Origin: an uncultured Gemmatimonadales bacterium | Lineage (GTDB): Bacteria; Gemmatimonadota; Gemmatimonadetes; Gemmatimonadales; GWC2-71-9 | Length of the DNA: 64,000 nucleotides | Direction: 5' to 3' | Assembly: GCA_963748815.1 (NCBI GenBank) | Contig: CAVVKJ010000019.1 | Coordinates: 1 to 64,000 of the forward strand | The notes under the pieces: model-generated | What the model was told of the DNA's origin: nothing | Database searches by the model: none | The model's input: only the letters and a program-made list of their open reading frames with translations | Program-made: the position numbers and the translations under genes | Shown: positions 45,988 through 64,000 of the stretch, one piece after another | Layout: each line of letters begins with the position of its first letter | How positions within the stretch are numbered: the first letter of the stretch is position 1

Positions 45988-46061
45988 GCGTCCCCCCTCT
46001 CCACATGGTGGAGAGGGGGACAGGGGGTGAGGGACTCACGCGAAGTCGCGAAGCCGCGAAG
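45988..46061 (+). repeat. PLS hairpin followed by (CGCGAAGN)3
   Basis: PLS 45988-46032; CTCACGCGAAGTCGCGAAGCCGCGAAG 46035-46061. Confidence 0.88.
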
Positions 46062-49941: not shown

Positions 49942-50534
49942 CGACCATCGCACTCGCGCCTGAACTCGAAGTCCGCCTCGCCGCGCTCCGCGAGGCGGGC
50001 TGGGCGCTCTTCGACCAGTTCGACCACGACGTGCGCGATCACCGGTGGCATCCCTTCGTGGCCGCCAATTACGAATCGGTGCTCGAGGCGCTCATCGCGC
50101 AGCGAGCGCCGGGGCTGAAATTCCTGGAATGGGGGTCGGCTACCGGCGTCATCACCATCATGGCCGACCTGCTCGGGTACGAGGCGTACGGCATCGAACT
50201 CGACGGATCACTGGTGGACACGGCGCGCGCGCTCGCCGCGCGATTCGAATCGAAGGCAACGTTTGTCGCCGGCAGCTTCCTCCCCGAGGGATACGCCTGG
50301 AAACCGAAGGACGGCGACGGCCGGCTCGGCACTATCGGTCAGGGACGTTCCGGGTACCTGGAGCTGGGCAAGCCGCTGGACGAGTTCGACCTCGTCTTCG
50401 GATACCCCTGGGCCGGGGAGGAGGCGATGATGCACGACCTCATGCGGTGCTACGGCGGTCGCGACGCGCGGCTGATGATCCACGGAACCGACCGCGGCGT
50501 GGAGATCTATCGGGACGGCAAGAAACAGGGCTGA
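49938..50534 (+). CDS. Class I SAM-dependent methyltransferase-like
   Basis: FLEWGSATG, YGIELD, FGYPW; GTGA overlap. Confidence 0.75.
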   Translation: MTTIALAPELEVRLAALREAGWALFDQFDHDVRDHRWHPFVAANYESVLEALIAQRAPGLKFLEWGSATGVITIMADLLGYEAYGIELDGSLVDTARALAARFESKATFVAGSFLPEGYAWKPKDGDGRLGTIGQGRSGYLELGKPLDEFDLVFGYPWAGEEAMMHDLMRCYGGRDARLMIHGTDRGVEIYRDGKKQG

Positions 50535-50563
50535 GAGGTGAGGACTGAGGACTGAGGGCTGAG
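50531..50563 (+). repeat. Heptamer tandem (CTGAGGR)n
   Basis: About five units; reverse complement of the 38959 heptamers; first unit contains the upstream TGA. Confidence 0.75.
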
Positions 50564-50617
50564 ATCACGATCGCGATCCAGCCTGGACTTCGCACCCCTG
50601 GACAGGAGGAGGCCGAA

Positions 50618-51106
50618 ATGTCGCGTCGCTCCGTCCCTCGATTCGCGGTGGTGGGGCTGTTTGCCGTGTTCGTTGCTGCCAGACAGTCTGCTGCGCAGGA
50701 AGGAGCGAGGTCCGCCCAGGCGGATTCGACCCATCGCGCCGCCGTGCTCGAGATGCTCCAGGTCATGAAAATTGGGGACGGGATCATGGAGATGATCGAG
50801 CTGTCCATGGCGGATACAACGGCCGGCGGGGGCATGGTCGAACCCCTTCGTTCGGCGTTTCTTGCGAAAGCCAGAGCGCGTCTGCCTGAACTGTTGCAAT
50901 CCCTCGTGCCGGGATTCGCCTCCAGGTTGACGCCGGACGACGTGCGGGAGATCACCGCGTTCTTCCGGTCGCCGAGTGGGGAACACTTGACCGCTGCTCG
51001 ATCGACGGCCGACCCCCAGATGGAGCAGGCGGTGGAACGCTGGGCGCTGAAGGTGGTCGGTGAGGTGATGATGGAGATGGGTGACGCACCCATCCCGGAG
51101 AAGTAA
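50618..51106 (+). CDS. DUF2059-like secreted protein
   Basis: GGAGG RBS, signal peptide, LTPDDVREITAFFRSPSG. Confidence 0.7.
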   Translation: MSRRSVPRFAVVGLFAVFVAARQSAAQEGARSAQADSTHRAAVLEMLQVMKIGDGIMEMIELSMADTTAGGGMVEPLRSAFLAKARARLPELLQSLVPGFASRLTPDDVREITAFFRSPSGEHLTAARSTADPQMEQAVERWALKVVGEVMMEMGDAPIPEK

Positions 51107-51172
51107 CGTCGCCGCACGAGGGTCCCACCGAAGTGGCCCGGAGTTGCTCCGGGCCGCTCACGGCGGGCGCCG

Positions 51173-52272
51173 CTACTGCCGGACCGCCTTCCCCCGCACA
51201 TCCCGCCGGTGCCGACGTTCGGTCCCTCCTGGAAGACGTAGTTCGACACCTGGGAAATCAGGTTCCCGTTGGCCGAGAGCTCCCAGGTGAAGTCTTCGCG
51301 GTAGGTGCTGCCCGGGGGGCCGGCAATGAAGTAGCCGCGCGCCTTGTGGGGGCTCCCCGCGATCACCGTCGCCGTGTAGTTGGCGATGTCGCCGGATCCC
51401 GGCGGATCCTCGTCTGCGATCGAGATGGTGCTGCCGCTCACTGTCAGCGTGTGCTTCGCCTGGCCGTACTCCACCGGGAGGCAGGCCCAGTTCTGCACGA
51501 AGACGCCGACCCAGTCGCCCGCCTTGCCGGTCCCTGCGCAGGGAAAGGTGATCTCGCTGTTCGGCAGGTCGGTCGCGGTCCCGCCGTTGTCGGTATAGGT
51601 GGCGCCGGTGACGGTGACCGTCGCGCTGTTGGACCGGAATTGCCAGACGGATTCGAGCGTGCCCTGGGTGCCCTGGATCTCGAAGAGCGCGTCGCCGTGG
51701 AGGCTGTACCCGCAGATGTTGGCCACGGCGTTCGCCGTGCCGTCGGCGGGCTTGAGGAGCAGCGGGCTCCCGAGCGGGACGGTCAGCGTCGTCATGTTGC
51801 CCGTCACCCCTTCGACGAAGGTGCCGGACCCGGTGGCCTCCCGTCCCACCGCGGTTCGGACAAAGTCCATTTCTCCCGCGAAGTTGCCGAGCCCGCCGGC
51901 GGTGGTGAGCGTCATGTCGACGTGCCCCGCAAAGCCGGGCGCCGCATCGGCGGGGTCACCATTGAAGGCGGCGGTGCCCGCCACGGTGGTTTCGGTGGAG
52001 CCGTTGCCGTCGCCGTCGAGCGGGGCCGAGAAGGTGTAGGTGTTCGGCGCCCCGGTGGGGGTAAACACGAAGCCACCGGACCCGGCTGATCCGGGATTGA
52101 GCATGAAGGGGATCACGGCCTCGAAATTCGCCATCCGGGTGACGAGCAGCGTCGCCCCGGTCTTCGCGTACGCGGCCAGTGCCGCGGACGGCGTGGTGAC
52201 CGGGTTCGGTTCGGAGTCGGAGCTGCACGACACGAAGGACAGGACCAGCAGGCTGGCGAGCAGACGGCGCAC
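51173..52272 (-). CDS. Hypothetical lipoprotein
   Basis: VLSFVSC lipobox-like leader, Gly/Thr-rich beta content; probable indel near 51190 hides the TAG at 51173. Confidence 0.65.
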
Positions 52273-52501
52273 GAGGCCTCCTCAGGGGGGGACACCGGCA
52301 GACGGCGGGCGACGAAGGGCGATACCTTACAGGCCGGGACAGGGGGAGTCAATAGGAGATCCCGGACCCGAGCGCCTGTACCCACGACCGGATGTGCGGG
52401 CGGCTCGATGCCTATCCAATCCTGCGCCATGGTGCAGATTACGGGAACGTAGAATGAGGGAGTCACCCTGATTCAGCTCTAACCAACCCGAGGTCGTCGC
52501 C

Positions 52502-53607
52502 ATGGGTCCGCTGCTGAAGGAAATCCGCCACAACAAGCTGCTCTGGCTGCTGGTGTTCGTGCCGGTGCTGTTCGGCGCCACGCGAGTGCAGGCCCGAGGC
52601 GCACACCATGTTGTTCGTGCTCTCGGTGCTGGCCATCGTGCCGCTGGCGGCGCTCCTGAGCCACGCCACCGAGTCGGTCGCCGCCAAGACCGGCGACGCA
52701 GTCGGCGGCTTGCTGAATGCCACGCTCGGCAACCTCACCGAACTGGTCATCGCGCTGGCCGCGCTCCGCGCCGGCCAGTACGCCCTCGTCAAGGCGTCGA
52801 TCGCCGGGGCCATCGTCACCAACACCCTCTTCATGCTGGGCGGCTCGTTCCTGCTCGGCGGGCTCAAGCACCACGTGCAGGAGTACAACCGCGCCGGCGC
52901 GCGCCTGCAGGCCGGCCTCCTCTTCCTGGCCACGGTCGCGCTGTTCGTCCCCTCGGCGGTCGCCGATGTCGACTCCCCGGCGGGGCGGCCTTCAGCCGGC
53001 AACTCAGCCTCGGGCTGGCGGTGCTGCTCATCGTGACCTACGGCCTCGGGCTGGTCTTCTCGCTCAAGACCCACCGCAAGTTCTTCGGCGAGCGCAAAGA
53101 AGGAGGGGGAGGAGGAGGCGCACGAGGAGACGCTGGCCGATCGGGGTGGCGCTGGCCACGCTGGCCGGCGTCACGGTGCTGGTGGCGCTGGTGAGCGAGG
53201 TCTTCGTCGAGTCGGTCCAGGAGGCGGCGGTGACGTTCGGCATGACCCCGGCCTTCGTCGGGTTCATCATCGTGGCGCTGGTCGGCGGCGCCGCGGAGAT
53301 GGCGTCGGCCTTTTCCGCGGCGCGCAAGGACCGCCTGGACCTGAGCGTCGGCATTGCGATGGGGAGCGCGGCGCAGATCGCGCTGTTCGTGGCCCCGGTG
53401 CTCGTCCTGCTCAGCTACGTGATCGGCCCGACGCCGATGGACCTGCAGTTCTGGCCGGGAGCGGTGGTGATGGTCTTCTTCGCCATGCTGGCCACGACGC
53501 TGGTGACGAACAGCGGCCGGTCGGCGTGGTTCGTCGGCGCCCTGCTGCTGATGGTGTACGCCATCCTGGGGATGACCCTCTACCTCCTGCCACCCCAAGT
53601 GATGTGA
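52502..53607 (+). CDS. chaA: Ca2+/H+ antiporter (CaCA/ChaA) (frameshifted)
   Basis: GGLLNATLGNLTE, SLKTH, VGGAAE, GSAAQIALFVAP across ORFs 52502/52608/52717. Confidence 0.88.
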
Positions 53608-53624
53608 TCGATGAGACTCCCGCC

Positions 53625-54309
53625 ATGACCGACGACACCGCCGCGGCCGCGCCGCGGCGGGCTCAGCGGTCCCGACGTGTCCTCGAACCGATCGAGCGGC
53701 TCTCCGAAATCCTCTTCGGACTCATCATGGTGCTCACCTTCACCGGCGCGCTCAGTGTGGCGGAGGCGGGGCGCGCGGATGTGCGCGAGATGCTCATCGG
53801 GGCGCTGGGGTGCAACCTGGCCTGGGGCATCATCGACGGGGTGTTCTACCTGATGGGAGCCATGGCCGAGCGGGGCCGCAACCTGCGTGCCCTGCGAGGC
53901 GGTGCGAGCGACCGAAGACCCGGAGGAGGCCGAGCGCCTCATCGTGGACGCGCTGCCGCCGACCATCGCGGCGGTGCTGGAGCCTTCCGAGTTCGTCGAC
54001 CTGCATCAGCGGCTCGGCGAACTCCCCGAGCCGCCCACCGCCCGCGTCTGGGCGGGACGACTGGCGTCGGCGCGCTCGGCGTCTGCCTTCTCGTCTTCGT
54101 CTCGACGCTGCCGGTGGTCCTCCCGTTCACTCTTCATGCACGACATCGCGCCGGCCATGCGCGTCTCCGACGGGATCGCGATCATCTTGCTCGCGCTCAC
54201 CGGGGCCGCGTTCTCCCGGATGACCGGCCGGAATCCCTGGTTCGACGGCGTCATCGCGGTGCTGCTCGGCTCGGCGCTGGTGGCGCTCACCATGGCGCTC
54301 GGCGGATGA
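53625..54309 (+). CDS. VIT1/CCC1-like membrane protein (frameshifted)
   Basis: LEPIERLSEILFGLIMVLTFT, ALGCNLAWGIIDG, ALGG* end. Confidence 0.7.
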
Positions 54310-54963
54310 CGGGCCTGAGGAGTCTCGCCCTGATCGGGCTCATCTCTTGTCCTGGTGACAAGGGTCGCCAGGGCGCAGTCGCCTGACACCGCCACCGCCT
54401 CGGCGTCGGACGCCGACGAGCGCACCTGGGCATTCGGCGCGGCGGCATACACCTACTTTCTCCAGGATGACGCCGACTACGTCCAACTGGCCGCGACCGC
54501 GGACCGCGCGGCGCTGCACCTCGAGGCGCGCTACAACTACGAGGAGATCGACGCCGCCTCGATGTGGGTCGGCTACAACCTGAGCGCGGAAGGGACGCTG
54601 ACGCTGGAGTTCACGCCGATTCTCGGCGGTGTCTTTGGCAGCATGACCGGGGTCGGACTCGGATACGAAGGGTCGCTGAGCTGGAAGAGCCTGGAGCTGT
54701 ACAGCGAAGGGGAGTGGATCTTCGATACCGAGGACTCTTCGAACAATTTCTTCTACAACTGGTCGCAGCTGATCTATTCGCCGGCCGACTGGGTCAACTT
54801 CGGGCTGGTCACCCAGCGGACCAGGCTGGTGGACACCGACCGCGAGATCAACCGCGGTCCCTTCCTGGGTTTCAGCTACCGGTCCCTCAGCCTGACTGCC
54901 TTCGCGGTCAACGTGGGGGCAGACGACGCGTACCTCATTCTCGGGCTGGAGGTTGGGTTCTAG
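54306..54963 (+). CDS. Putative outer-membrane beta-barrel (frameshift in signal region)
   Basis: HLEARYNYE, aromatic amphipathic strands, terminal Phe. Confidence 0.65.
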
Positions 54964-54980
54964 GCCGGAAGAGAGGACGA

Positions 54981-55192
54981 GGGAAGCGCGGAAGGGTGTC
55001 GGAAGCTCGGAAACAACGAAAAATGCTCAAAAGCGTCAATTTCTTGAAGGATATTCTGTGTTTTCTTCGATCTTCAATCAAATATCTGGGTTTTGCCGCA
55101 TTTTCTGCGGCTTTCCGGGCTATCGGCGTGAAGGGATCACCGCCTTGGACCGGGGACGCGGGAGGCGCGGAAGGCTGTCGGAAGCTCGGAAA
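54981..55192 (+). repeat. 33-bp direct repeat pair around an AT-rich spacer
   Basis: GGGARGCGCGGAAGGSTGTCGGAAGCTCGGAAA at 54981-55013 and 55160-55192, two mismatches. Confidence 0.8.
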
Positions 55193-55272
55193 GGTGGAAT
55201 ATAGACGAATTATCGCAATATTGGGTCAATAATCGATTGAAACAGGTCCATTTGTACCATTCTACTGTTGTT

Positions 55273-55300
55273 TTCGCGCCTTCGCGTCTTCGCGTGAGCC
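55273..55300 (-). repeat. (CGCGAAGN)3 element
   Basis: TTCGCGCCTTCGCGTCTTCGCGTGAGCC; 55273-55298 is the exact inverse of 58371-58396. Confidence 0.9.
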
Positions 55301-55327
55301 CCGTCCGAACCCCGCCCGGGAGGCCCC

Positions 55328-55680
55328 ATGTGGCTGATCACCACCACCGGTTTCTACAGCGTCGTCCAGAAACCGTGGGATCAGGCCGCCGACACCCTCA
55401 CGGTTCGCGCCCGCGCCAAGGCTGACCTCGACGCACTCCGCGAGGCCGGGCTCCCGGAGCTGGGGGAGATCATGGAGGATCCCGGGCGCCGACTACCGGT
55501 TCCGGGCCCAGGCGCCGAGGGCGGCAGTGACCCGTGCGGTGCGAGGCGCAGGTCGAGGCGATCGACTACGACAACTTCAAGTCGGCGGTGGCCAGGCGGC
55601 AGGGATCGGCGCGCGCCCACCTGTATCATGGCGTGTGGGATGCGCTGTATCGGATTCAGTCCGGGACTGAAGGGGCCTAG
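55328..55680 (+). CDS. Conserved hypothetical protein (frameshifted; end uncertain)
   Basis: MWLITTTGFYSVVQK...VRAR...DYRFRA...IDYDNFK...YHGVW pieced over frames; GGAGG RBS. Confidence 0.65.
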
Positions 55681-55798
55681 GCTTCCCGCGCCCATTGGGC
55701 TCCTCGCCAGACAAAAACACTCAAGAACGAGCAGTTTTTCTCCAGAACTCCTCAGTTTCTTCCTGTTTTCTGCGAATTCCAGCACAATACGGTGTCTT

Positions 55799-55827
55799 TT
55801 CGCGCCTTCGCGCCTTCGCGTGAGCCC
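55799..55827 (-). repeat. (CGCGAAGN)3 element
   Basis: TTCGCGCCTTCGCGCCTTCGCGTGAGCCC. Confidence 0.9.
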
Positions 55828-55883
55828 TTGGGGAGTATCGAAGTGGCTTGCGCCGTTGCTGGTATTATCAGATATTATTCCGT

Positions 55884-56288
55884 ATGCCAAAGCGACCTCC
55901 CATTGCCCGGATCTCCATCACCATCCCCGCTGACACCCTGCGGCTGGCGGATGAGCTTGCCGCTCGGCTCGATCGGCCGCGCAGCTGGGTGATGGGGGAG
56001 GCGGTGCGGCGGTGGGACACGAGTTCCCCCGCGACCGGTGCCACAAGCACCGTGCGCGAGGCCGCGGCCCTTCACTACACTGCGCATCGGCCCGGGCTGG
56101 GGGAGAGTCGTCTGGCTCAACTCCAATCCGACATGGAGTTGAGCGTGGATGAGCGGGTCCTGGCGGCAGAGGAAGGCGCAAAGCTCGATCGCGTGATCCA
56201 TCCGTCGAGTCCCGGCTCACAACTCAGATTCTTCGATCGATACGAGGACTATCTCGCGTGGAAGAAGTATCAAGGGATCGCCCGATGA
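55884..56288 (+). CDS. CopG/RHH DNA-binding protein, putative antitoxin
   Basis: RISITIP...ADELAARLDRPRSWVMGEAVR; C-terminal LSVDERV...FDRYEDY. Confidence 0.75.
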   Translation: MPKRPPIARISITIPADTLRLADELAARLDRPRSWVMGEAVRRWDTSSPATGATSTVREAAALHYTAHRPGLGESRLAQLQSDMELSVDERVLAAEEGAKLDRVIHPSSPGSQLRFFDRYEDYLAWKKYQGIAR

Positions 56289-56752
56289 CCACGTACCAGA
56301 CCCAGCTCGCGCAGGTCTGCGCGCTCCTGAATGAGTCCGGAGCGCAGTATGTCCTGGTAGGCGCCCGCGCCCTTCAGCTCTATGGCAGCAGCCGCGCCAC
56401 GCGTGATATCGACATCCTCATTGAGCCCACCATCGACAACGCCAGACGGGTGCTCTCGGCGCTCTCACAGATCGGATTCGGCGTGGCCAGCGATTGGCTT
56501 GCAGAGGAGGTCGTCGCCAAGCAGGTCACCATCATTGGTGACACGCCAAGGGTGGATATCCTGACGGTGGCGTGGAGCGTTCGCTATCGCGATGCCCGAC
56601 CCGCGGCGACGATCTTCACCCTGGAATCGGTGGAGATCCCGACGATCTCGATCGAGCACCTCATTGCCTCCAAACGCACCGGCCGCCTGCAGGACGCGGC
56701 CGACATCGAAGTCCTCGAGGAGATTCAGCGACTTCGCGGCGAGGGCATATGA
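56285..56752 (+). CDS. Nucleotidyltransferase (DUF6036/AbiEii-like, Pol-beta fold)
   Basis: YVLVGARAL...RATRDIDILI...VDI...LIASKRTGRLQDAADIE; ATGA-coupled. Confidence 0.85.
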   Translation: MTTYQTQLAQVCALLNESGAQYVLVGARALQLYGSSRATRDIDILIEPTIDNARRVLSALSQIGFGVASDWLAEEVVAKQVTIIGDTPRVDILTVAWSVRYRDARPAATIFTLESVEIPTISIEHLIASKRTGRLQDAADIEVLEEIQRLRGEGI

Positions 56753-57255
56753 CCGTCATCATCCGCGCCCTCCTCGCCGACATCACTACCCTCGACGTGG
56801 ACGCCATCGTCAACGCCGCCAACGACCAGTTGGCCCCCGGCGGCGGCGTCTGCGGTGCGATCCATCGCGCCGCCGGCCCCGAGCTCGCCGAGGCATGCGC
56901 CCCTCTCCGCCCCTGCCCTGCCGGCGAAGCGCGCGTCACCCCCGGCTTCAACCTCCCCGCCCGTCTCGTGATCCACGCCGTCGGTCCCCGCTGGCTCGGC
57001 GGCGACCAGGGAGAGCCGGAGCAGCTGGCCGGCGCCTATCGCTCGGCGTTCCGCCTGGCGCAGGAGAGCATGGTCAAGACCCTCGCGTTCCCCGCCATCA
57101 GCACCGGCATCTTCGGGTATCCGCTGCACCCGGCCACGGCCATTGCCGTGCGGGTGACGCGGGAGGTGGCGCCGGCGTCGGGGGTGGAGGAAGTCATCTT
57201 CGTCTGCTTCAGCGAGGAAGTGCTGGGGGCGTATCGGAAGGAAGGAGTGGAATGA
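56749..57255 (+). CDS. Macrodomain protein (YmdB-like ADP-ribose deacetylase/hydrolase)
   Basis: DIT, DAIVNAAN, GGGVCGAIHRAAG, VIHAVGP, FPAISTGIFGYP; ATGA-coupled. Confidence 0.95.
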   Translation: MTVIIRALLADITTLDVDAIVNAANDQLAPGGGVCGAIHRAAGPELAEACAPLRPCPAGEARVTPGFNLPARLVIHAVGPRWLGGDQGEPEQLAGAYRSAFRLAQESMVKTLAFPAISTGIFGYPLHPATAIAVRVTREVAPASGVEEVIFVCFSEEVLGAYRKEGVE

Positions 57256-57314
57256 TCCCTCGCGCGTGATTCCGGTTGTGACCTTTCGCTGATGGGTACC
57301 AAGACTATAGGGGC

Positions 57315-57757
57315 TCACGCGAAGGCGCGAAGACGCGAAGGAGACAGCGGTATGAACGCAGAGGAGGTCTCCTCGGCTATTGTGGATACTGCATTTCACC
57401 TGCACAGAGGGATAGGACCGGGGCTCCTGGAGTCGGTCTACGAATCACTCCTGTCGAGTCTGCTGGAACGTCGGGACCTGAAGGTAGAACGACAAGTACT
57501 CGTCGAGTTCGATTTCGACGGGGTTCACTTCTCGGAGGGATTACGGCTGGACTTGTTGGTGGAAGGCTTGGTGGTGGTTGAACTCAAGTCGGTGGAGCGA
57601 TTGGCGCCGGTCCACCCGAAACAACTTCTGACATACCTCCGACTATTGCATCTCCCGCTCGGCCTCCTCATCAACTTCGGCGCACCCACCTTCAAGGAAG
57701 GCGTCAAGCGAGTCGTCAACCATCACACCAACTTCGCGTCTTCGCGCCTTCGCGTGA
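57315..57757. mobile_element. Putative inverted-repeat-bounded GxxExxY element
   Basis: Perfect 26-bp IR TCACGCGAAGGCGCGAAGACGCGAAG (57315-57340) and its inverse (57732-57757); mobility is inferred only. Confidence 0.5.
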
Positions 57758-57774
57758 ACCAACGGTCCGACTAA
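57352..57774 (+). CDS. GxxExxY protein (PD-(D/E)XK-like nuclease family)
   Basis: GPGLLESVY, RLDLLVE, VVELKSVE, QLLTYL, GLLINFG. Confidence 0.93.
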   Translation: MNAEEVSSAIVDTAFHLHRGIGPGLLESVYESLLSSLLERRDLKVERQVLVEFDFDGVHFSEGLRLDLLVEGLVVVELKSVERLAPVHPKQLLTYLRLLHLPLGLLINFGAPTFKEGVKRVVNHHTNFASSRLRVNQRSD

Positions 57775-58364
57775 AGAACCCCGGCAATCGCGTAGGCGAT
57801 CTTCTCCGCCCCCTGCGAGGACGGTTCGATCTCCAGCACGAAGTCCTCCTCCTCCGTGCACACTCGCCGCAATTCCAGCACCTCCAGCCCCAATTCCTCG
57901 CCGACCCACCGGATCCGATCGTTGATCAGCCCGAGGGGGACGCGGGCAAGCCGGCCCGCCATCGGCGGCTGCAGCGGCACCTCGTAGATGGTGCAGAGCA
58001 CCGTCCTTTCCGTGCGCTCCATGACCGACCGCGCCGCCACCTCGTACTGCAGGTGGAACCCGTCGGCGATGGCCAGCAGTTCCGCCAGGACCTCGGCCGC
58101 CGAGGTGGCGGGCCGCTCGATGATCTCGATGTAGGGCACCAGGTCGTTCCCGCCGATGCTCAGCACCGCGACATCCGGCCGATAGTCCAGCGCCTCGAGC
58201 TGACGCGGCAGGCCGCGCATGGTGGCGCCGTCCTGCGCCAGCCGCTTCACCGACCAGGTCGGGGCCAGCAGCGGCTCCAGGTGCGCGGTCGTGTCCGGCT
58301 CCGGGTGGGTGTAAGGGGCGTTGTCGAGGATCGAATCGCCGAGGAGGAGGAGGGTCTGGGTCAT
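57771..58364 (-). CDS. SGNH/GDSL hydrolase
   Basis: LLGDSILDN, LAQDGA, SIGGND, IEPS. Confidence 0.85.
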   Translation of the reverse strand: MTQTLLLLGDSILDNAPYTHPEPDTTAHLEPLLAPTWSVKRLAQDGATMRGLPRQLEALDYRPDVAVLSIGGNDLVPYIEIIERPATSAAEVLAELLAIADGFHLQYEVAARSVMERTERTVLCTIYEVPLQPPMAGRLARVPLGLINDRIRWVGEELGLEVLELRRVCTEEEDFVLEIEPSSQGAEKIAYAIAGVL

Positions 58365-58370
58365 TGATAT

Positions 58371-58405
58371 CTCACGCGAAGACGCGAAGGCGCGAAGGCG
58401 CGAAG
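58371..58405 (+). repeat. (CGCGAAGN)4 element
   Basis: CTCACGCGAAGACGCGAAGGCGCGAAGGCGCGAAG. Confidence 0.9.
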
Positions 58406-58499
58406 CTGGGTCGGACAAGTATGTCACACCCCTCTGACATCTTGGCCTTTCACGTTAGTTGGTCTGACCGGAGCATTGACCAGGAGGAGAGGGAACCCG

Positions 58500-58865
58500 A
58501 TGCCTGACTGGAAACCGAGCCCGATTGCCGGGAAGTTCTACACCGTAGAGGACCTCATGAACCTGCCGCCGGCAGGATGCGTCAATCCCGCGAAGTCCCG
58601 GGAGGTGAGCCGGAACCTGCCGGTGCGGTTCTGGATGGAGACGGCCGAGCTGGTGGCCATTCTCGAGGCCAACATCGAGCTGATCAGGCTCAACCAGGAG
58701 CGGGCCAGCGCAGATGACGCCCGCCAGGCCGAGGTGCTGATTGCGCAGCGACGGCTCTGGGTCCGCCACCTGCTGGAGGCAGACGAGGAAGAGACCTTCA
58801 TCGGCATCTTTCCCGCGTCGTTCGCCGGCGACGAATACGATCAGGAGGAGGCCATCACCGGCTAG
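58500..58865 (+). CDS. Hypothetical protein
   Basis: AGGAGGAG RBS, coiled central segment, acidic tail. Confidence 0.6.
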   Translation: MPDWKPSPIAGKFYTVEDLMNLPPAGCVNPAKSREVSRNLPVRFWMETAELVAILEANIELIRLNQERASADDARQAEVLIAQRRLWVRHLLEADEEETFIGIFPASFAGDEYDQEEAITG

Positions 58866-58870
58866 TTCCT

Positions 58871-58968
58871 CTTCGCGACTTCGCGTGAGCCGAATCAGTT
58901 CACACGAAGTCGCGATCTTTCACCTCACCCCCTGTCCCCCTCTCCATGATATGGAGAGGGGGAACGCC
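58871..58968 (-). repeat. (CGCGAAGN) elements plus PLS hairpin
   Basis: 58871-58889 is the exact inverse of 46035-46053; 58921-58968 is the exact inverse of 39671-39718. Confidence 0.9.
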
Positions 58969-58976
58969 GAGCGAAG

Positions 58977-60233
58977 CTACGGCATCCGCATCTTCCTGCC
59001 GAGGAGGTCTTTCGCTTCCCGGATGTTGTAGGACTCGAAACGCTCGCGCTTGAGCGAGTACTGGTCGAACCGCTCCCGGTGCCTGTGGGCCAGCTGTTCC
59101 AACTCGCGCACCAGGCGCCGCATTTCGGGGTCATGTCCGGCGTACTCCTTGATCCGACGGGCGGTGGCCAGCAGTACGCTGCGCGCCTTCTCCAGTTCGC
59201 CGATCCGGTTCAGCTCGGCCGCTTCCTCGCGGGCCTGGGCGGCGTAGCGCTGGGCCACGGCGAGGTCCACCGACTGGTCGCGCACCTGGGCGTCGTTGGC
59301 GGGGTGGTCGGCGTACTCCCACTCGATCCGCTCGGGGCGGACCTGCAGTACACCGTCACGATCGGCCAGGGAGACACTGATACCGGAGCTGGCGCCCATG
59401 GCACCGCGGGGGAACGTCACGCGGAGTACCGCGTCCACCTGCTGGCGGCTGACGAGGTCGTCGAGCGCGACTTCCACGGTGCGGCCGTTTCGGGTGACGC
59501 GGCGACCGTCGAGCGAGTGAATGATCAGGCCGGGGTCGGCTTCGACGACGACGCTGGCGTCCCGTGACACGACCTCGAGCGCCTCGCCCAGTTCGCTCAT
59601 CAGGAAATCGGCAATCTGTTCCGGACGCTCGAGGTAGTAGAAGTTCCCGCCGCCGGCCCGGGCCATGCCCTCCATGAGCCGCTCGTCGAAATCGCGCCCG
59701 ATGCCGAAGGTGCTGGTGGCGACGCCGCGGGCGCGGAGTTCGCCGGCATGCGTTTGGAGCGCACCCACGTCGGTGATGCCGGCGTTCGCCAGGCCGTCAC
59801 TCAGCAGCAGCGTGCGGGCGACGGTGTTCGCGCGCTCGGCGCGAGCCACCTCTTCGCAGCCCGTCAGCCAGCCGCCGGAGAGGTTGGTGGAGCTGCCGGA
59901 ATCGAGATGGTCGATTGCCGAGAGGAGGCGGCGCTTGTGGTCGTGATCGAGGAGCGCGCCGCCGGCCAGGAGCTCCACCTCGGTGTCGTAGGCCACCAGG
60001 GCCACGTGGTCGCGGGGGCCGAGAAGTTCGACCGCGCGGCGGGCAGCCAACTTCGCCAGTTCCAGCTTGTCGCCGTCCATCGAGCCCGACTTGTCGATGA
60101 CGAGTGCGACGTCGAGCGGCAAACGTTCGCGCTGACGCGGGGCCTCGGGGGCGGTGAAGCGGATGCGGACATAGCGGGTGCTGTGGACGCCGGCGCGGAC
60201 CAGCCTCCGGTCGGTATGGATGTGCAGTGTCAT
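58977..60233 (-). CDS. vWA domain protein (YfbK/CLCA-like)
   Basis: LVIDKSGSM MIDAS, STNLSGG, LLSDGLAN, FGIG, GGGNFYY. Confidence 0.92.
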   Translation of the reverse strand: MTLHIHTDRRLVRAGVHSTRYVRIRFTAPEAPRQRERLPLDVALVIDKSGSMDGDKLELAKLAARRAVELLGPRDHVALVAYDTEVELLAGGALLDHDHKRRLLSAIDHLDSGSSTNLSGGWLTGCEEVARAERANTVARTLLLSDGLANAGITDVGALQTHAGELRARGVATSTFGIGRDFDERLMEGMARAGGGNFYYLERPEQIADFLMSELGEALEVVSRDASVVVEADPGLIIHSLDGRRVTRNGRTVEVALDDLVSRQQVDAVLRVTFPRGAMGASSGISVSLADRDGVLQVRPERIEWEYADHPANDAQVRDQSVDLAVAQRYAAQAREEAAELNRIGELEKARSVLLATARRIKEYAGHDPEMRRLVRELEQLAHRHRERFDQYSLKRERFESYNIREAKDLLGRKMRMP

Positions 60234-60760
60234 AGACCCTCCCCAGTATTGATGAGCCGATCGGCGAGTTCGACCAGCCGACTCACCAACTTCGTCTCGT
60301 GGTGTGACAACGGGCTTCGAACGTGCATCTCGATGTTGGGGGTGAGGGATATCCGCTCCCAGGAGTCGCGGGAGCGTTGGGAAGGGGTGGCGACCGTCCG
60401 CTGCGGGGTCCGTTCCGCGCGGAAGAAGGGGGTTTCGCGTTCGGCGCCCATCCGGATGGAGCGGGCGTAGTCGGCGGCGGATTTGCGGCGCTGCTGAACC
60501 TCGGCGAGGGTCCTGGCCACCTCGGCGTCGTCCATCGGGGCCAGCCGGTCCTGGATCTCGGCCAAGGTCAGGCGCTCCTTTTGGAGGGCCCGGATGAGCT
60601 CGAGGCGCTGGACATCGGAGTCGCCGTAGAGGACCTTGACCCCGCGGAGGCCGGGGGAGTCCATCAGCCCTTCGTTCTGGTAAAACCTTATGGTACGGAC
60701 ACTTAGACCGGTGGCGGCGGCGAGATCCTGGATGGAGAGGTCGTCGGAGTTGAGGAGCAT
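60230..60760 (-). CDS. MerR-type HTH regulator with C-terminal WxRxxL domain
   Basis: SIQDLAAATGLSVRTIRFYQNEGL...LTLAEI; WERISLTPNIEMHVR; ATGA-coupled to vWA. Confidence 0.88.
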   Translation of the reverse strand: MLLNSDDLSIQDLAAATGLSVRTIRFYQNEGLMDSPGLRGVKVLYGDSDVQRLELIRALQKERLTLAEIQDRLAPMDDAEVARTLAEVQQRRKSAADYARSIRMGAERETPFFRAERTPQRTVATPSQRSRDSWERISLTPNIEMHVRSPLSHHETKLVSRLVELADRLINTGEGL

Positions 60761-60767
60761 GGCAGTA

Positions 60768-60796
60768 AATGTACAGTTTGACTGTTATACTGTCAA
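60768..60796 (-). promoter_or_regulatory. Sigma70-type promoter with overlapping palindromic operator
   Basis: TTGACA-17 bp-TACATT-7 bp-ATG; TTGACAGT-ATA-ACAGTCAA palindrome at 60778-60796. Confidence 0.8.
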
Positions 60797-60915
60797 TACC
60801 CATGGTCCCTGGAGTTGATGTCTCCGGCCGCTCGTCCAAGCCACTTGTGTTCCGTCCTTTCCGTGACAGACTTTGAAACGCTGATCATCCCACCACCAAG
60901 AGCGAGAGGGAAGCG

Positions 60916-61511
60916 ATGGAACAGAACCCAATCCATTTCGAGCCCTGGAAGGCGAGTTGTTCAAGAGTGGCGAAGGCCAGCTCGGCTCCAAACGGCTCCT
61001 AGTCCTCGGCGAGGCGCATTACTCCGACCATCCTGAGGATGAGACCCCGGAGCTCACGTGCAACCTGCTTCAGACCATCACTGATGGGACCAGGTCGATC
61101 GCGTATTTCACAAAGCTCGAGCACCTGCTCGCCGGTTGCCAGAACGGTGACGGAAGACGCCGTGTCGGGCTTCAATGGGGTTCTACACTTTGACAGGGAC
61201 TCGTCGCGAAGGCGCGAAGACGCGAAGACGCGAAGAGGGGGCTCACACGAAGGCGCATTTGCGGTGTGCTGGCAGAATTGAAACCTCAACGAGTCCTCGT
61301 CACCGGCGTCGAACTCTGGAACGCACTGAGCCATGGACTCTTTCCGGGCTGGACGTCCAGATCAATGACGCCGGGATTCGACGGCCCGATTTACGAATGG
61401 AGTTCGGTGGACCACCAGCCACAGGTCTGCGCCACCTGGATCAGCCACCCATCCTCCGGCTCATCCGCCTACGAGAAGTGGACCGAGCGGATTGACACGC
61501 TCATGGAGTAG
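60916..61511 (+). pseudogene. UDG-superfamily-like protein, frameshifted, with an internal repeat
   Basis: FEPWK..., RLLVLGEAHY, VLAELKPQRVLVTG, HPSS; (CGCGAAGN)4 at about 61205-61236. May be intact and mis-sequenced. Confidence 0.55.
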
Positions 61512-62214
61512 GCAATCAGCGAACCCTGCTGTCACACCCCCATGCGATTGTTCGGGTCAACCGTACCACCAACCCGAGCGTGCAATGGACTACCCGTCGA
61601 ACCCACTAACTCTCTTTCCTCCTGCAATCCATGAGCTGCTCGACCGGCAATGCAAGTCCTGGAAGCCACACCACGCCGCACTTGTTGTTGTCTTTCGTGT
61701 ATGGCAACTCGGTGCAGCGCTTCGGTGGAACGTGGCGCCTCCTCCCTGTTCTACGGATTGGTGCGACTCGAATTGGCGTGTGAGCTCCGACCGACTTGGC
61801 TGGCTGGCCGAAGGCAGGGAGTACGTCCGTCGGAGTTCGGGCCTCACTTCATCAGCCTCGTGGCGGGGTGGAGTTGGGCCGGCCGGAACACGTTCCTCAT
61901 CGGGGGTTTCCGCCTGCCGCATCGTACACGCCTCAAGCGGCGGTACCGCGGAGTCTCCGCATGCTGAGCGGGCAATCCAGCGCCGCGCAGCGTGAATTTC
62001 CGACAGTGTTCGCGGCTTCGCGCGAAGAGGGAACGGTCACCTTCTGGAAGGCGCGCGCGGCCAAGTGCGCGTGCCCCCGGTGTCGGAGCATGAAGTCATC
62101 CTGGAACCGGGTCTCAAGAAGTCGCTGCTCGACTGGCTGGACCATTTCTGGAATCAGCAGTCAGCGGCTCGGAACTGGGCCTGACGCCGAGGGGACCCCG
62201 CTCGGCCACACCCA

Positions 62215-62693
62215 TCATCTCCGTGTAGCCAGCCGGAATAGGTCCAGTCCCGGCCTTCCCGGACGGGATGGCCATCTGTATGTCGCCACCACCTCAGGGC
62301 GGCAAGCCGATTGCTTCAGCCGATGCTCGGCCTCTCGCGCCAGCTCGGCGAACCGCTGCACGAGGACTTGTCGGCGAGCACCCGGGCGGTGTGTGGCGCG
62401 CATCCGTCCAATGTGAAGTAATTGTTCTCGGCGTCCCCCGTTGTGTATCGGGCGGCTCGCGCCAAGGGATCGTGATCCAGTCGCACCGTTGTCGTGGAGG
62501 ATGTACAGGGCAAGCCAGCGGGTAGGACGCCGCGTCTGTTCGCCGGAAGAACAGGCCGCTCGGTGCGTTCGCGGAGACGATCCGAAGGCCGCTGGTAGCC
62601 GCGCTTGTGCAGTTCGTGCACCATCTGGAGGACGCGCACTGCCCGGCGGACAATGGGCTCAGGCGAGCGGACGCTCGGCTTGGGAGTAGCCAT
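62215..62693 (-). CDS. Conserved hypothetical protein (frameshifted, 3' end uncertain)
   Basis: RVLQMVHELHKRGYQR/LRIVS..PSG, ARYTTG..NNYF/WTDA, TARVLADK pieced across frames. Confidence 0.45.
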
Positions 62694-63470
62694 CTAGAAT
62701 GCCCTTTCTGCGGCTTGGAGGCAGCAGGAGATGGAGCACGCGCATTGAATGGCCAAGGCGAGCATCCTACGCCAGGCCACCATCTCCATGCGAAGTCGGT
62801 ACTCGTCGCGAGGAGGATTCTCGGGGAAGCAGACCGCGTCGCCTCGGCGGATTCGCCTGGCAGTCCAGAGGCCAGCGAACGCATTGAGGATGTCATCCGC
62901 CTCACAGCCGAGGTCTTGGCGTGCGGTGAGGGCGGCATCGATAGCTCCCCCAAACTCCGTCCGAAGGAGTCCCGCCCGTCTTGCCTGACCTTCTGGTGAA
63001 CGCTTCTTCGCGACAATCGGCTCGCCCCCCGCCAGGTGAAAGAAGCAGAGCTCGGGATGGACTTCGCGCACATGACCCCGGAGGGAGGGGTCACCCCGCA
63101 TCAGATCGTCGACCTCACGAATCTTCGGGAGGATTGCCCAGGCCTGTTTCGACAGGGCCCGACCCTCGATGCGGCGCCCGATGGCACAGGCGTCCGAATA
63201 GGTGGATGCCGTGAGCATCGGCCGGATCGGGGCCGTGAACACTGAACGACCTCTCGGCTGTCCGAGCAGTTGGCGCGCCGCGATGTCGCACTCGCGGCTG
63301 CCAGACGACATCAGCCCTATCGGGATATCAAGCGCCAGAAGTTCCGGCGGGTTCGGTGAATCAAGAAGAGCCCGGACCGACGGCACGACCTCCCAGGAGA
63401 TTCGCCCGTCCGCACTCTCGCGGATCACGGCCCAGCCGCCCTTGCACCCGTCCGCTCCGGCAATGATCAC
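62694..63470 (-). CDS. DUF429 predicted RNase H-like nuclease
   Basis: GADGCKGGW, LDIPIGL, RECDIAAR, SVF, KIREVD, EVHPE, DDIL; the C-terminus may be over-extended. Confidence 0.88.
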   Translation of the reverse strand: MIIAGADGCKGGWAVIRESADGRISWEVVPSVRALLDSPNPPELLALDIPIGLMSSGSRECDIAARQLLGQPRGRSVFTAPIRPMLTASTYSDACAIGRRIEGRALSKQAWAILPKIREVDDLMRGDPSLRGHVREVHPELCFFHLAGGEPIVAKKRSPEGQARRAGLLRTEFGGAIDAALTARQDLGCEADDILNAFAGLWTARRIRRGDAVCFPENPPRDEYRLRMEMVAWRRMLALAIQCACSISCCLQAAERAF

Positions 63471-63498
63471 GAGGCGGCACCACCTTCTCAACGGAGAA

Positions 63499-64000
63499 TC
63501 AGCCACGCTTCACCTGACACTTCGCCAACTCTACCAGCACCCCGTGACACCCGATCCCCACAATCTGCACACGCCAACGCTGGGCCACCGTCCGCGGGAC
63601 CCGGGCGGCGTGCGAGCCGGGGTTCCGGTCCTTCGCCAAGGCGTCGAGAATGGGGGGCAGCTGCGTCGCGTACCACCCGCCGTTCTCCAGCCGCTTCCCC
63701 AGGAATTGCGCCCGCTCACGGTCCCCGCCGATCACGCGCGCAAGCTGCCCAAGCGACAGCGAGCCGCTCCGGGCCAAGTCCTCCGTCGAGCCATCGATGT
63801 TCGCCAGCCGGATCGCCTCCGGCGCGTCTTGCAACGCACAGAGAAGGATCCGGTTCACCTGTACTTCGACGGCCTTGGCCAACGGCCCCATCGACGCCTG
63901 AAAGTCGAAGGCGTCATCCTCCCGATGATCGCGGAACACCTTCTCCCCGGTCGCGACAAACGTCCGGGCAACCGGATTCGAGGGCCTGCCACGCGGCGTC
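63499..64000 (-). CDS. C-terminal part of a protein with a putative HEPN domain (5' truncated)
   Basis: Helical DF...KAVE...SLGQL...RNPGSH (R-x4-H). Confidence 0.6.
   Translation of the reverse strand, partial: TPRGRPSNPVARTFVATGEKVFRDHREDDAFDFQASMGPLAKAVEVQVNRILLCALQDAPEAIRLANIDGSTEDLARSGSLSLGQLARVIGGDRERAQFLGKRLENGGWYATQLPPILDALAKDRNPGSHAARVPRTVAQRWRVQIVGIGCHGVLVELAKCQVKRG

Follow-up and report, generated by a model that had tools for sequence, protein, structure and literature searches.

This work concerns a short tandem repeat, here called the arm, and a small gene that it flanks, encoding a protein of the GxxExxY family, in DNA from an uncultured Gemmatimonadales bacterium. The stretch analysed (the window) is 64 kb long and corresponds to C19:1-64000 of G000, a 3.16-Mb assembly; G numbers denote genomes (G000 being the window's own assembly), C numbers its contigs and L numbers the stretches fetched for comparison. 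The original prediction, made from the letters of the window, was that the repeats between 55 and 61 kb are recombination or insertion joints of an integron-like island that assembles defence and stress genes. Are the arms the joints of a cassette system? Do they belong to one of the genes that they surround? And what is the A-rich DNA that trails some of them? An arm consists of two to four CGCGAAGN octamers behind a head, (GGGC)TCA, and its period is exactly 8: genome-wide, 41 pairs of units lie at spacing 8, none at 7 or 9 and two at 10. The pattern CGCGAAGNCGCGAAG, with at most one mismatch, matches 20 times in the window against 0.09 expected. Within 55272-61235 these matches merge into seven arrays (at 55272, 55798, 57732 and 58871 on the minus strand and at 57318, 58375 and 61205 on the plus strand); beyond them lie one weak match at 62008 and three in the first 55 kb (11188, 38882 and 46039), which bears out the predicted density of at least seven copies in some 6 kb against about three in the preceding 55 kb. 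The two inverse pairs singled out from the start are likewise confirmed by complementarity: 55273-55298 and 58371-58396 are 100% complementary over 26 nt, and 55806-55827 is the exact inverse of 57311-57332.

The locus is syntenic across the genus. Sixteen stretches were fetched, and 14 of them extend into the island; these, the window and contig C3 make up the 16 stretches, from 14 genomes, to which the counts below refer. The left border is occupied by a second arm family, the F type, with GGAAG..CGGAAG..CGGAAA units about 10 bp apart. Two F-type arms on the plus strand (54975..55013, similar to those of the other GxxExxY gene that G000 has, on C14, and 55154..55192) enclose a minus-strand segment of phased A-tracts (55024..55113, amplitude 9.8). 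Arm 1 (55272..55301, minus strand) carries GGGCTCA and three CGCGAAGN units and is kept in 7 of the 10 stretches that bear hyp1; its AT-rich tail (55193..55271, minus strand) has A/T tracts one helical turn apart and is bent by about 92 degrees in a simple wedge model with an assumed wedge angle. The hyp1 gene (55328..55680, plus strand) encodes a 116-amino-acid protein of no named family; it has two one-base insertions in the window assembly (55480 and 55543) and is intact in relatives. Arm 2 (55798..55827, minus strand) has a phased A-tract tail (55712..55797, minus strand; about 111 degrees in the same model) that is identical in G001, lies some 55 bp upstream of the start of a gene for an RHH protein and is kept in 8 of 11 RHH-bearing stretches. 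The RHH gene (55884..56288) is followed on the same plus strand by a nucleotidyltransferase (NTase) gene (56285..56752, weak DUF2204/AbiEii matches) and a macro-domain gene (56749..57255), O-acetyl-ADP-ribose deacetylase-like, which occurs in 15 of 16 stretches and is the conserved anchor of the locus. The first 44 or so RHH residues are conserved, and the C-terminal part is exchanged between haplotypes jointly with the NTase. Together they form a hypervariable allele block (window 55884-56752; L033-L047), with median amino-acid identities of 56% and 63% vs 89% for the macro protein, and alleles are swapped between otherwise near-identical haplotypes while the DNA-binding part of RHH is kept. 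From sequence, RHH and NTase are probably a toxin-antitoxin pair, diversifying in look.

Next comes the GxxExxY unit: a 5' arm (57310..57341, plus strand), the gene itself (57352..57774, plus strand; TIGR04256, PF13366, PD-(D/E)XK fold), present here in 3 of 16 stretches, and a 3' arm (57732..57760, minus strand) within the last codons of the gene, which base-pairs with the 5' arm in a single-strand fold of the unit. An SGNH/GDSL hydrolase gene (57771..58364, minus strand) separates this unit from a second pair of arms, a left member of four units (58371..58405, plus strand) and a right member (58871..58892, minus strand), which enclose hyp2, a gene for a 121-amino-acid orphan (58500..58865, plus strand) preceded by a PafBC-type promoter motif, TGTCAC-N10-nA-N3-T (58422..58443, plus strand). 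A partial arm then runs into an unrelated hairpin repeat found genus-wide, the H type (58900..58966, plus strand), and the map closes with genes for a vWA-domain protein (58977..60233, minus strand), a MerR-family regulator (60230..60760, minus strand) and a 201-amino-acid protein labelled UDG-like (60916..61511, plus strand). The predicted order of repeats and genes holds overall, except that the copy at 57732 lies inside the last GxxExxY codons and not in front of SGNH; the labels RHH, NTase, macro, GxxExxY (TIGR04256 above cut-off), SGNH/GDSL, vWA and MerR also hold, and only UDG-like lacks backing from Pfam. In the ESM Atlas, hyp1 falls only in unnamed clusters and hyp2 gives nothing usable, and a PDB sequence search returned no meaningful match.

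The UDG-like gene deserves separate treatment, as in this assembly it is broken and contains a further arm copy, as noted in the original prediction. Three intact homologs of 201-222 amino acids exist, none of which matches a Pfam family at E<=1; the LVLGE and HPS motifs may resemble those of the uracil-DNA glycosylase (UDG) superfamily. Outside a 105-bp patch, the window gene differs from the intact homolog P0001 by 3 residues and one one-base gap. The patch holds six one-base gaps and one missing codon around a double arm (61203..61256, plus strand) that occupies the place of some 20 codons and is nearly as long as they are. The window contig has other one-base errors without support in read contigs, and DNA for the intact gene was not found in 300 genomes of the class or in plasmids. 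A consensus error or a mixture of strains is quite probably the cause, being likelier than a real overwrite of an arm-like site, which it possibly is. The copy is no clean joint; in the bolder version of our proposal given below, the patch, if real, would be an example of GxxExxY overwriting arm-like sequence with a new arm.

The repeat is dense in the island but not confined to it: G000 has 39 copies by one pattern and 34 by a stricter one. All 34 strict-pattern arms lie outside called genes or overlap a gene end by 25 bp or less, none being well inside, as judged with our own gene caller and with a pattern that does not match the 61205 copy. Half of the 34 are on C19, in two clusters that adjoin in relatives without the intervening 32-kb island described below, and 20 lie on C19 or at C5:36-54 kb. 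Pairs are found at C5:36.8/37.1, C10:50.7/50.8, C19:89.2/89.4 and C19:92.8/93.0 kb, and many other arms are single. Other short-period repeat families are present in the same genome, and the octamer tandem repeats GCTTCCCC (91 arrays) and GCTGCCCC (31 arrays) are abundant across it. The H-type hairpin repeat, unrelated to the arms, has 34 copies (window 58920-58966 and 46000-46035; L166-L169), and together with two further hairpin families it often docks directly on arms, forming composite piles. G000 also has one four-helix-bundle gene (TIGR02436, C5:557 kb).

The GxxExxY protein and its arms

The window GxxExxY protein has 140 amino acids and matches PF13366 at 6e-35 and TIGR04256 at 5e-36; its closest named relative comes from an uncultured Gemmatimonadales genome. 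Residues E27, D67, E77 and K79 are invariant among 37 homologs, and we take them to be a PD-(D/E)XK active site (E...D...ExK pattern). The predicted structure has a pLDDT of 89.5, and its best fold matches are Cas4 and other PD-(D/E)XK nucleases, all of them weak (E 0.013; none reaches E 0.001). The gene (57352-57774) is bracketed by an inward-facing arm pair whose 3' member supplies its last codons. Is this arrangement a peculiarity of the window? Among 80 homologous GxxExxY loci fetched, 78 have enough flank, spanning Acidobacteriota, Planctomycetota, Verrucomicrobiota, Chloroflexota, Pseudomonadota, Bacteroidota and others (two of the 78 are the same DNA as two syntenic stretches of the locus comparison). 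With a strict arm pattern, 47 loci show an upstream arm, 58 an inverted one at the 3' end, and 46 have both. The corresponding counts for a generic arm pattern are 47, 55 and 41, and the same pattern gives 9 and 10 matches in 661 control windows. Within the genus, arms differ in sequence between this GxxExxY clade and others, and on a tree of 99 GxxExxY proteins arm type needs 26 changes, against 47.4 when shuffled (0 of 200 shuffles as low), on a quick tree with arm labels assigned by a crude rule. Judged by these sequence comparisons, the GxxExxY gene is flanked by its own repeat, the type of which follows the clade of the gene, and the repeat of the window is the cognate arm of its GxxExxY gene, a relation that had been missed.

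Could the arms instead be halves of RNA hairpins, or neutral products of slippage, with the GxxExxY gene travelling along and doing nothing to them? Facing arm pairs do fold to stable stems and many arms lie near gene ends, as this explanation would have it. However, many arms are single, and lone arms fold poorly (-5 to -11 kcal/mol); their orientation relative to the flanking genes is mixed, and a terminator scan finds none at arms. Arms that are specific to a GxxExxY clade across phyla are also hard to explain without recognition, and we regard passive hairpins as very improbable. A scan of 50000-64000 with the Rfam covariance models gave no match at E<=1. We favour, with a probability of roughly 65%, a REP-like (repetitive extragenic palindromic) family of selfish repeats served by the PD-(D/E)XK GxxExxY protein. 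Flanking of the gene, tracking of its clade, dispersal and the occasional gain or loss of an arm are all seen in the comparisons, and the arms are mostly inherited in place: outside the locus, an arm between conserved genes is shared with G000 in five of seven colinear comparisons and is found only in the relative in two (five further sites without colinear flanks were excluded).

Gene turnover across relatives

If arms were joints, gains and losses of genes should end on them; the original prediction had proposed aligning related genomes for this purpose. Gene content of the island varies widely across the 16 stretches, and the locus is a region of gene turnover. Strand and relative order of the genes are the same wherever they occur, and for this reason no inversion is seen. 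The assembly itself probably mixes two strains or species: C3 (L051) is a 7-kb second version of the locus, 90-95% identical, without RHH-NTase and with a DUF2779 gene, and is probably a second haplotype or a relative. Ten events of gain, loss or swap, counted by eye and without a statistical test, have 20 ends, of which 8 touch an arm and 12 lie away from arms; most of the region's long spacers contain an arm.

Arms lie at both ends of three of these changes. In L039, L040 and L041, hyp1 is absent and a single arm is left; in L041 the DNA upstream of it matches the context of arm 1 (71%) and the DNA downstream that of arm 2. In L036, GxxExxY is absent and arm remnants surround another hairpin. 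The inward-facing pair beside SGNH is empty in L035 and L036, holds hyp2 in the window and an HD gene plus hyp2 in L034, where the extra HD gene has one end at an arm. Other changes avoid the arms. Where RHH-NTase is absent (C3, L043, L045), the ends are at gene borders, the hyp1 stop lies 2-3 bp from the macro start and no repeat is left at these empty sites. The allele swaps of the RHH C-terminus and NTase also fall away from arms, with 19-38 mismatches per 70 bp inside vs 0-7 in the flanks (window vs G001). For the slot of the UDG-like gene, the break falls near 60800 in four relatives, and one read contig has it at 60768/61530; an M16 peptidase pair is lost with both ends away from arms, and in L038 macro is joined directly to vWA, again with both ends away from arms. 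An island of 32 kb that replaces DUF2779 touches an arm at one end only: on the left it begins at the macro stop codon, 55 bp short of the arm, and its right end falls in an arm and tail (C19:89.3 kb). This island (C19:57256-89300; L049, L050) carries genes for an AddAB-like helicase-nuclease, a WYL pair, type III restriction-modification, GmrSD and NOV_C, and related islands occur in G012, G013 and G014. All four intergenic TGTCACACC(C/G) sites of G000 lie in it (window 58422 and 61530; C19:80551 and C19:88903). They fit the mycobacterial PafBC motif tGTCgg-N10-tA-N3-T, and the WYL pair of the island is PafB/PafC-like, so that the sites possibly mark an island-borne DNA-damage regulon.

How much of a joint function can be retained? 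The hyp1, GxxExxY and hyp2-slot events fit arms as recombination or insertion joints, and one may imagine arms and bent tails together serving the gain, loss and swap of cargo, with GxxExxY in place of an integrase. The single arm left where hyp1 is gone, the empty and filled pair beside SGNH and the right end of the 32-kb island speak for it. So do a c37-M16a-M16b block of G000 flanked by near-identical tail segments, a Pua-like gene (window 63499-64000 and beyond; L035, L036, L038, L052) found in three different slots, once inverted between arm clusters, and arm clusters among small accessory genes in L166 and L168. Yet 12 of the 20 hand-counted ends are elsewhere (RHH-NTase, the M16 pair and the UDG slot end at gene borders or promoters), gene order and strand in the island are fixed, and the cargo genes lack the single, constantly placed repeat that goes with each integron cassette. 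Arms are just as frequent at invariant core junctions, such as holA/SPOR, where 7 of 9 stretches have an arm, not always of the same family. Read data favour neither side: among the runs listed, none covers half of the stretch (best share 0.23) and none is of RNA, the four read sets compared are contigs, and joints at repeats have 25-32 letters on the short side, which fit other repeat copies too, so they were rejected as evidence of excision or inversion. We consider joints of this kind unlikely. The evidence does not bear out an integron-like cassette system. A scan for attC sites (RYYYAAC...GTTRRRY, fold-back) finds none in C19:50-100 kb, and the same scan finds 36 on C8 (20-80 kb searched), where G000 has a true chromosomal integron (C8:21307-51281, intI and at least 36 near-identical attC sites of 127-129 bp); the sole match to the integron integrase family TIGR02249 above cut-off lies there too, beside its own array.

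Phased tails and the replication origin

The minus-strand arms of the locus trail 80-90 bp of A-rich DNA whose A-tracts are in register with the arm, near positions 25, 35, 45, 55, 66, 75, 86 and 96. In the 29 low-GC tails among 77 arms, the AA autocorrelation at lag 10 is 0.30, and the signal returns at 20-21, 30-31 and 40-41; none of 300 shuffles reaches 0.30, and 63 low-GC control spacers are flat. The period is about 10.2-10.3 bp (10.2 bp pooled). The wedge model gives a mean bend of 111 degrees against 33 for shuffled tails, and 22 of 22 tails exceed the 95th percentile of their own shuffles. Of the 14 genomes whose stretches are informative, 13 have phased tails, highly fragmented assemblies included, and a read contig covers 55019-55353 with five differences; they are therefore no artefact of the window assembly. 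The strongest phased windows of G000 are all at this locus and on one strand, once the AT-rich start of C11 is set aside (C11:500-4700 is very AT-rich in a 68% G+C genome and is read as foreign DNA or contamination).

Where else do such tails occur? None is found beside the arms of the cross-phylum GxxExxY loci, a search of 59 other genera with one pattern gives 0 of 59, and a metagenome scan for arm plus tail returned one match, of unrelated low complexity. Among the genera scanned, the phased tails thus appear limited to this genus, and as a general trait of GxxExxY arms they were rejected. DUF2779, a family with a Cas4-like N-terminus, was also rejected as their maker, as 0 of 29 other DUF2779 loci are phased. 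At this locus, phased T-tracts extend over the DUF2779 stop codon into the last codons (L033:7260-7380, reverse complement; L051:6974-7063). The tails are at best weakly copies of one element: identity at non-A positions is 0.38-0.41 vs 0.34 shuffled, some words of F-type arms recur, and some tail words match that family with its 10-bp units. The tails may be expanded, A-drifted arrays of F-type arms. What is kept over time is phase, while the letters turn over: most orthologous tails differ at 30-60% of aligned bases, which suggests selection for the bend. Most pairs of genomes differ more in the tails than at third positions of the macro gene, except for three close pairs (0.00, 0.05, 0.07), a pattern that fits tract-wise exchange as well as local hypermutation beside arms.

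The location of the locus offers a possible use for the bend. In G000, dnaA is found at C19:111047, and the sign of the skew switches early on C5; the locus is about 18-27 kb from dnaA in relatives free of the island, and the copies on C19 are 14-56 kb from it. A location at the terminus was rejected given these distances and a dif-like site on C10. The plus-strand genes of the locus probably meet the replication fork head-on. An inward-facing arm pair (C5:36823-37074) encloses both parS sites upstream of parA. G002 and G015 retain this pair, and in G001, G003 and G014 parS has an arm no more than 200 bp away. Arms and bent tails might, then, be host cis-elements by now, curved DNA near the origin that binds a protein or loads gyrase, an idea compatible with a selfish-repeat family. 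Its assets are the strongest phased windows on one strand of a single locus, the 20 of 34 arms on C19 or at C5:36-54 kb, the conserved pair around parS and the phase kept despite the turnover of letters. Against it, the tails belong to this genus only (0/59 genera, 0/29 DUF2779 loci, none at cross-phylum GxxExxY loci), their number and position vary between relatives, and a mutational process could also keep phase. We hold a host function to be decidedly unlikely.

The proposed system and its relation to known ones

How would a selfish-repeat family served by GxxExxY work? We infer that the protein binds, cuts and copies arms. The small PD-(D/E)XK protein would bind the phased CRCRAAG units and cut, and cutting would lead to arms or arm pairs being copied at a low rate, chiefly in the neighbourhood of the gene and of the origin. 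Their high density here would follow from the site being both home to the cognate gene and an accessory region rich in spacers. Turnover of cargo would be mostly ordinary recombination at or within neighbouring genes, in a hotspot for defence and stress functions, with arms now and then acting as short homology (hyp1 loss) or as brackets (the hyp2 slot). The minus-strand arms of the locus would have gained 80-90 bp of phased A-tracts, partly from the second, 10-bp arm family.

Several observations weigh against this proposal. In the wrong orientation, generic arms number 8 upstream and 24 downstream at the 78 loci, the downstream count being the troublesome one, and the 3' arm lies partly within the query protein, which favours its detection. 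Copy number speaks for the proposal only in part: the three members of the genus that have this GxxExxY at the locus hold the most exact arms, 33, 24 and 14, and the other 14 members hold 0-10, but the genomes are related and not independent, and outside the locus the link is weak, at 18, 11 and 3 arms against 8, 8 and 8 in three genomes without GxxExxY here. Arms may ride in piles of hairpin repeats (a 200-bp pile in L170), so another enzyme could move them, and an alternative mover is the product of the single Y1_Tnp transposase match of G000 (C5:410 kb), with no A-type arm near it among those listed. The comparisons gave no clean pair of empty and filled sites with a target duplication, and 8 of the 20 breakpoint ends are at arms. 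The role of GxxExxY as the protein that binds, cuts and copies the arms is putative.

A bolder version would make GxxExxY proteins the enzymes of an undescribed selfish-repeat system spanning phyla and using restriction-fold rather than HUH chemistry, with the bent tails of this genus as a row of landing pads beside the origin, where GxxExxY cuts open sites that defence and stress genes can enter and may replace arm-like sequence by a new arm; we think it quite unlikely. The proposal of a repeat family with its own PD-(D/E)XK protein gives a common protein family without a known function a defined, clade-specific DNA motif, which makes binding and cleavage directly testable. If true, a REP-like system run by such a protein would widen the known routes by which short repeats persist and spread in bacteria. 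The bent tails would be a bacterial case of DNA shape kept under sequence turnover, anchored on a selfish repeat.

Integron cassette arrays consist of IntI, attI and attC, with one site per cassette. The locus is like them in that small accessory genes are separated by repeats in a variable region. It is unlike them in having no attC core sites or adjacent integrase, mixed gene orientation, repeats on both strands and breakpoints mostly away from the repeats, and the 36-attC array that G000 has on C8 looks nothing like the arms.

REPs and their doublets, REPINs, with their tyrosine transposases (RAYTs) are closer. Work of Bertels and Rainey (2011, PMC3116915) describes short extragenic repeats, often inverted doublets, that cluster beside a cognate single-copy gene and insert next to existing repeats; a genome has several groups of them, every one with a gene of its own. 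Like them, the arms are extragenic and dispersed, flank a cognate gene and are of a type that follows the clade of this gene. The differences from the repeats as described in that account are that an arm consists of tandem 8-bp units and a REP of a short palindrome, that the gene encodes a 140-amino-acid PD-(D/E)XK protein and a RAYT is a Y1 tyrosine transposase, and that arms number in the tens, with many single arms beside doublets; its description of the repeats also offers no counterpart to the bent tails. The repeat in PMC5317091, in the part that presents it, is a different, 18-nt palindrome.

The family PDDEXK_3/GxxExxY (PF13366, TIGR04256) has been described as of unknown function and subject to multiple transfers (PMC3424549). 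The window protein is a member, and the mixed phyla on the GxxExxY tree match multiple transfers; the entry on this family in that work makes no mention of flanking repeats. Our literature search, with most subscription journals and supplements outside it, found no paper linking GxxExxY/PDDEXK_3 to such repeats. The phased bent tails on the arms are new in this analysis and unexplained. In prokaryotes, an A/T periodicity of 10-11 bp is described as implying curvature (PMC3940949), and the periodic An/Tn clusters (PATCs) of C. elegans are phased A-tracts reported to derive from Helitron minisatellites (10.64898/2026.08.08.743475). The tails share with both the phasing of A/T at the helical repeat, and PATCs, as presented there, also arise from selfish repeats. 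They differ in being about 85 bp long and in register on a nuclease-linked arm, at one origin-proximal locus of one bacterial genus.

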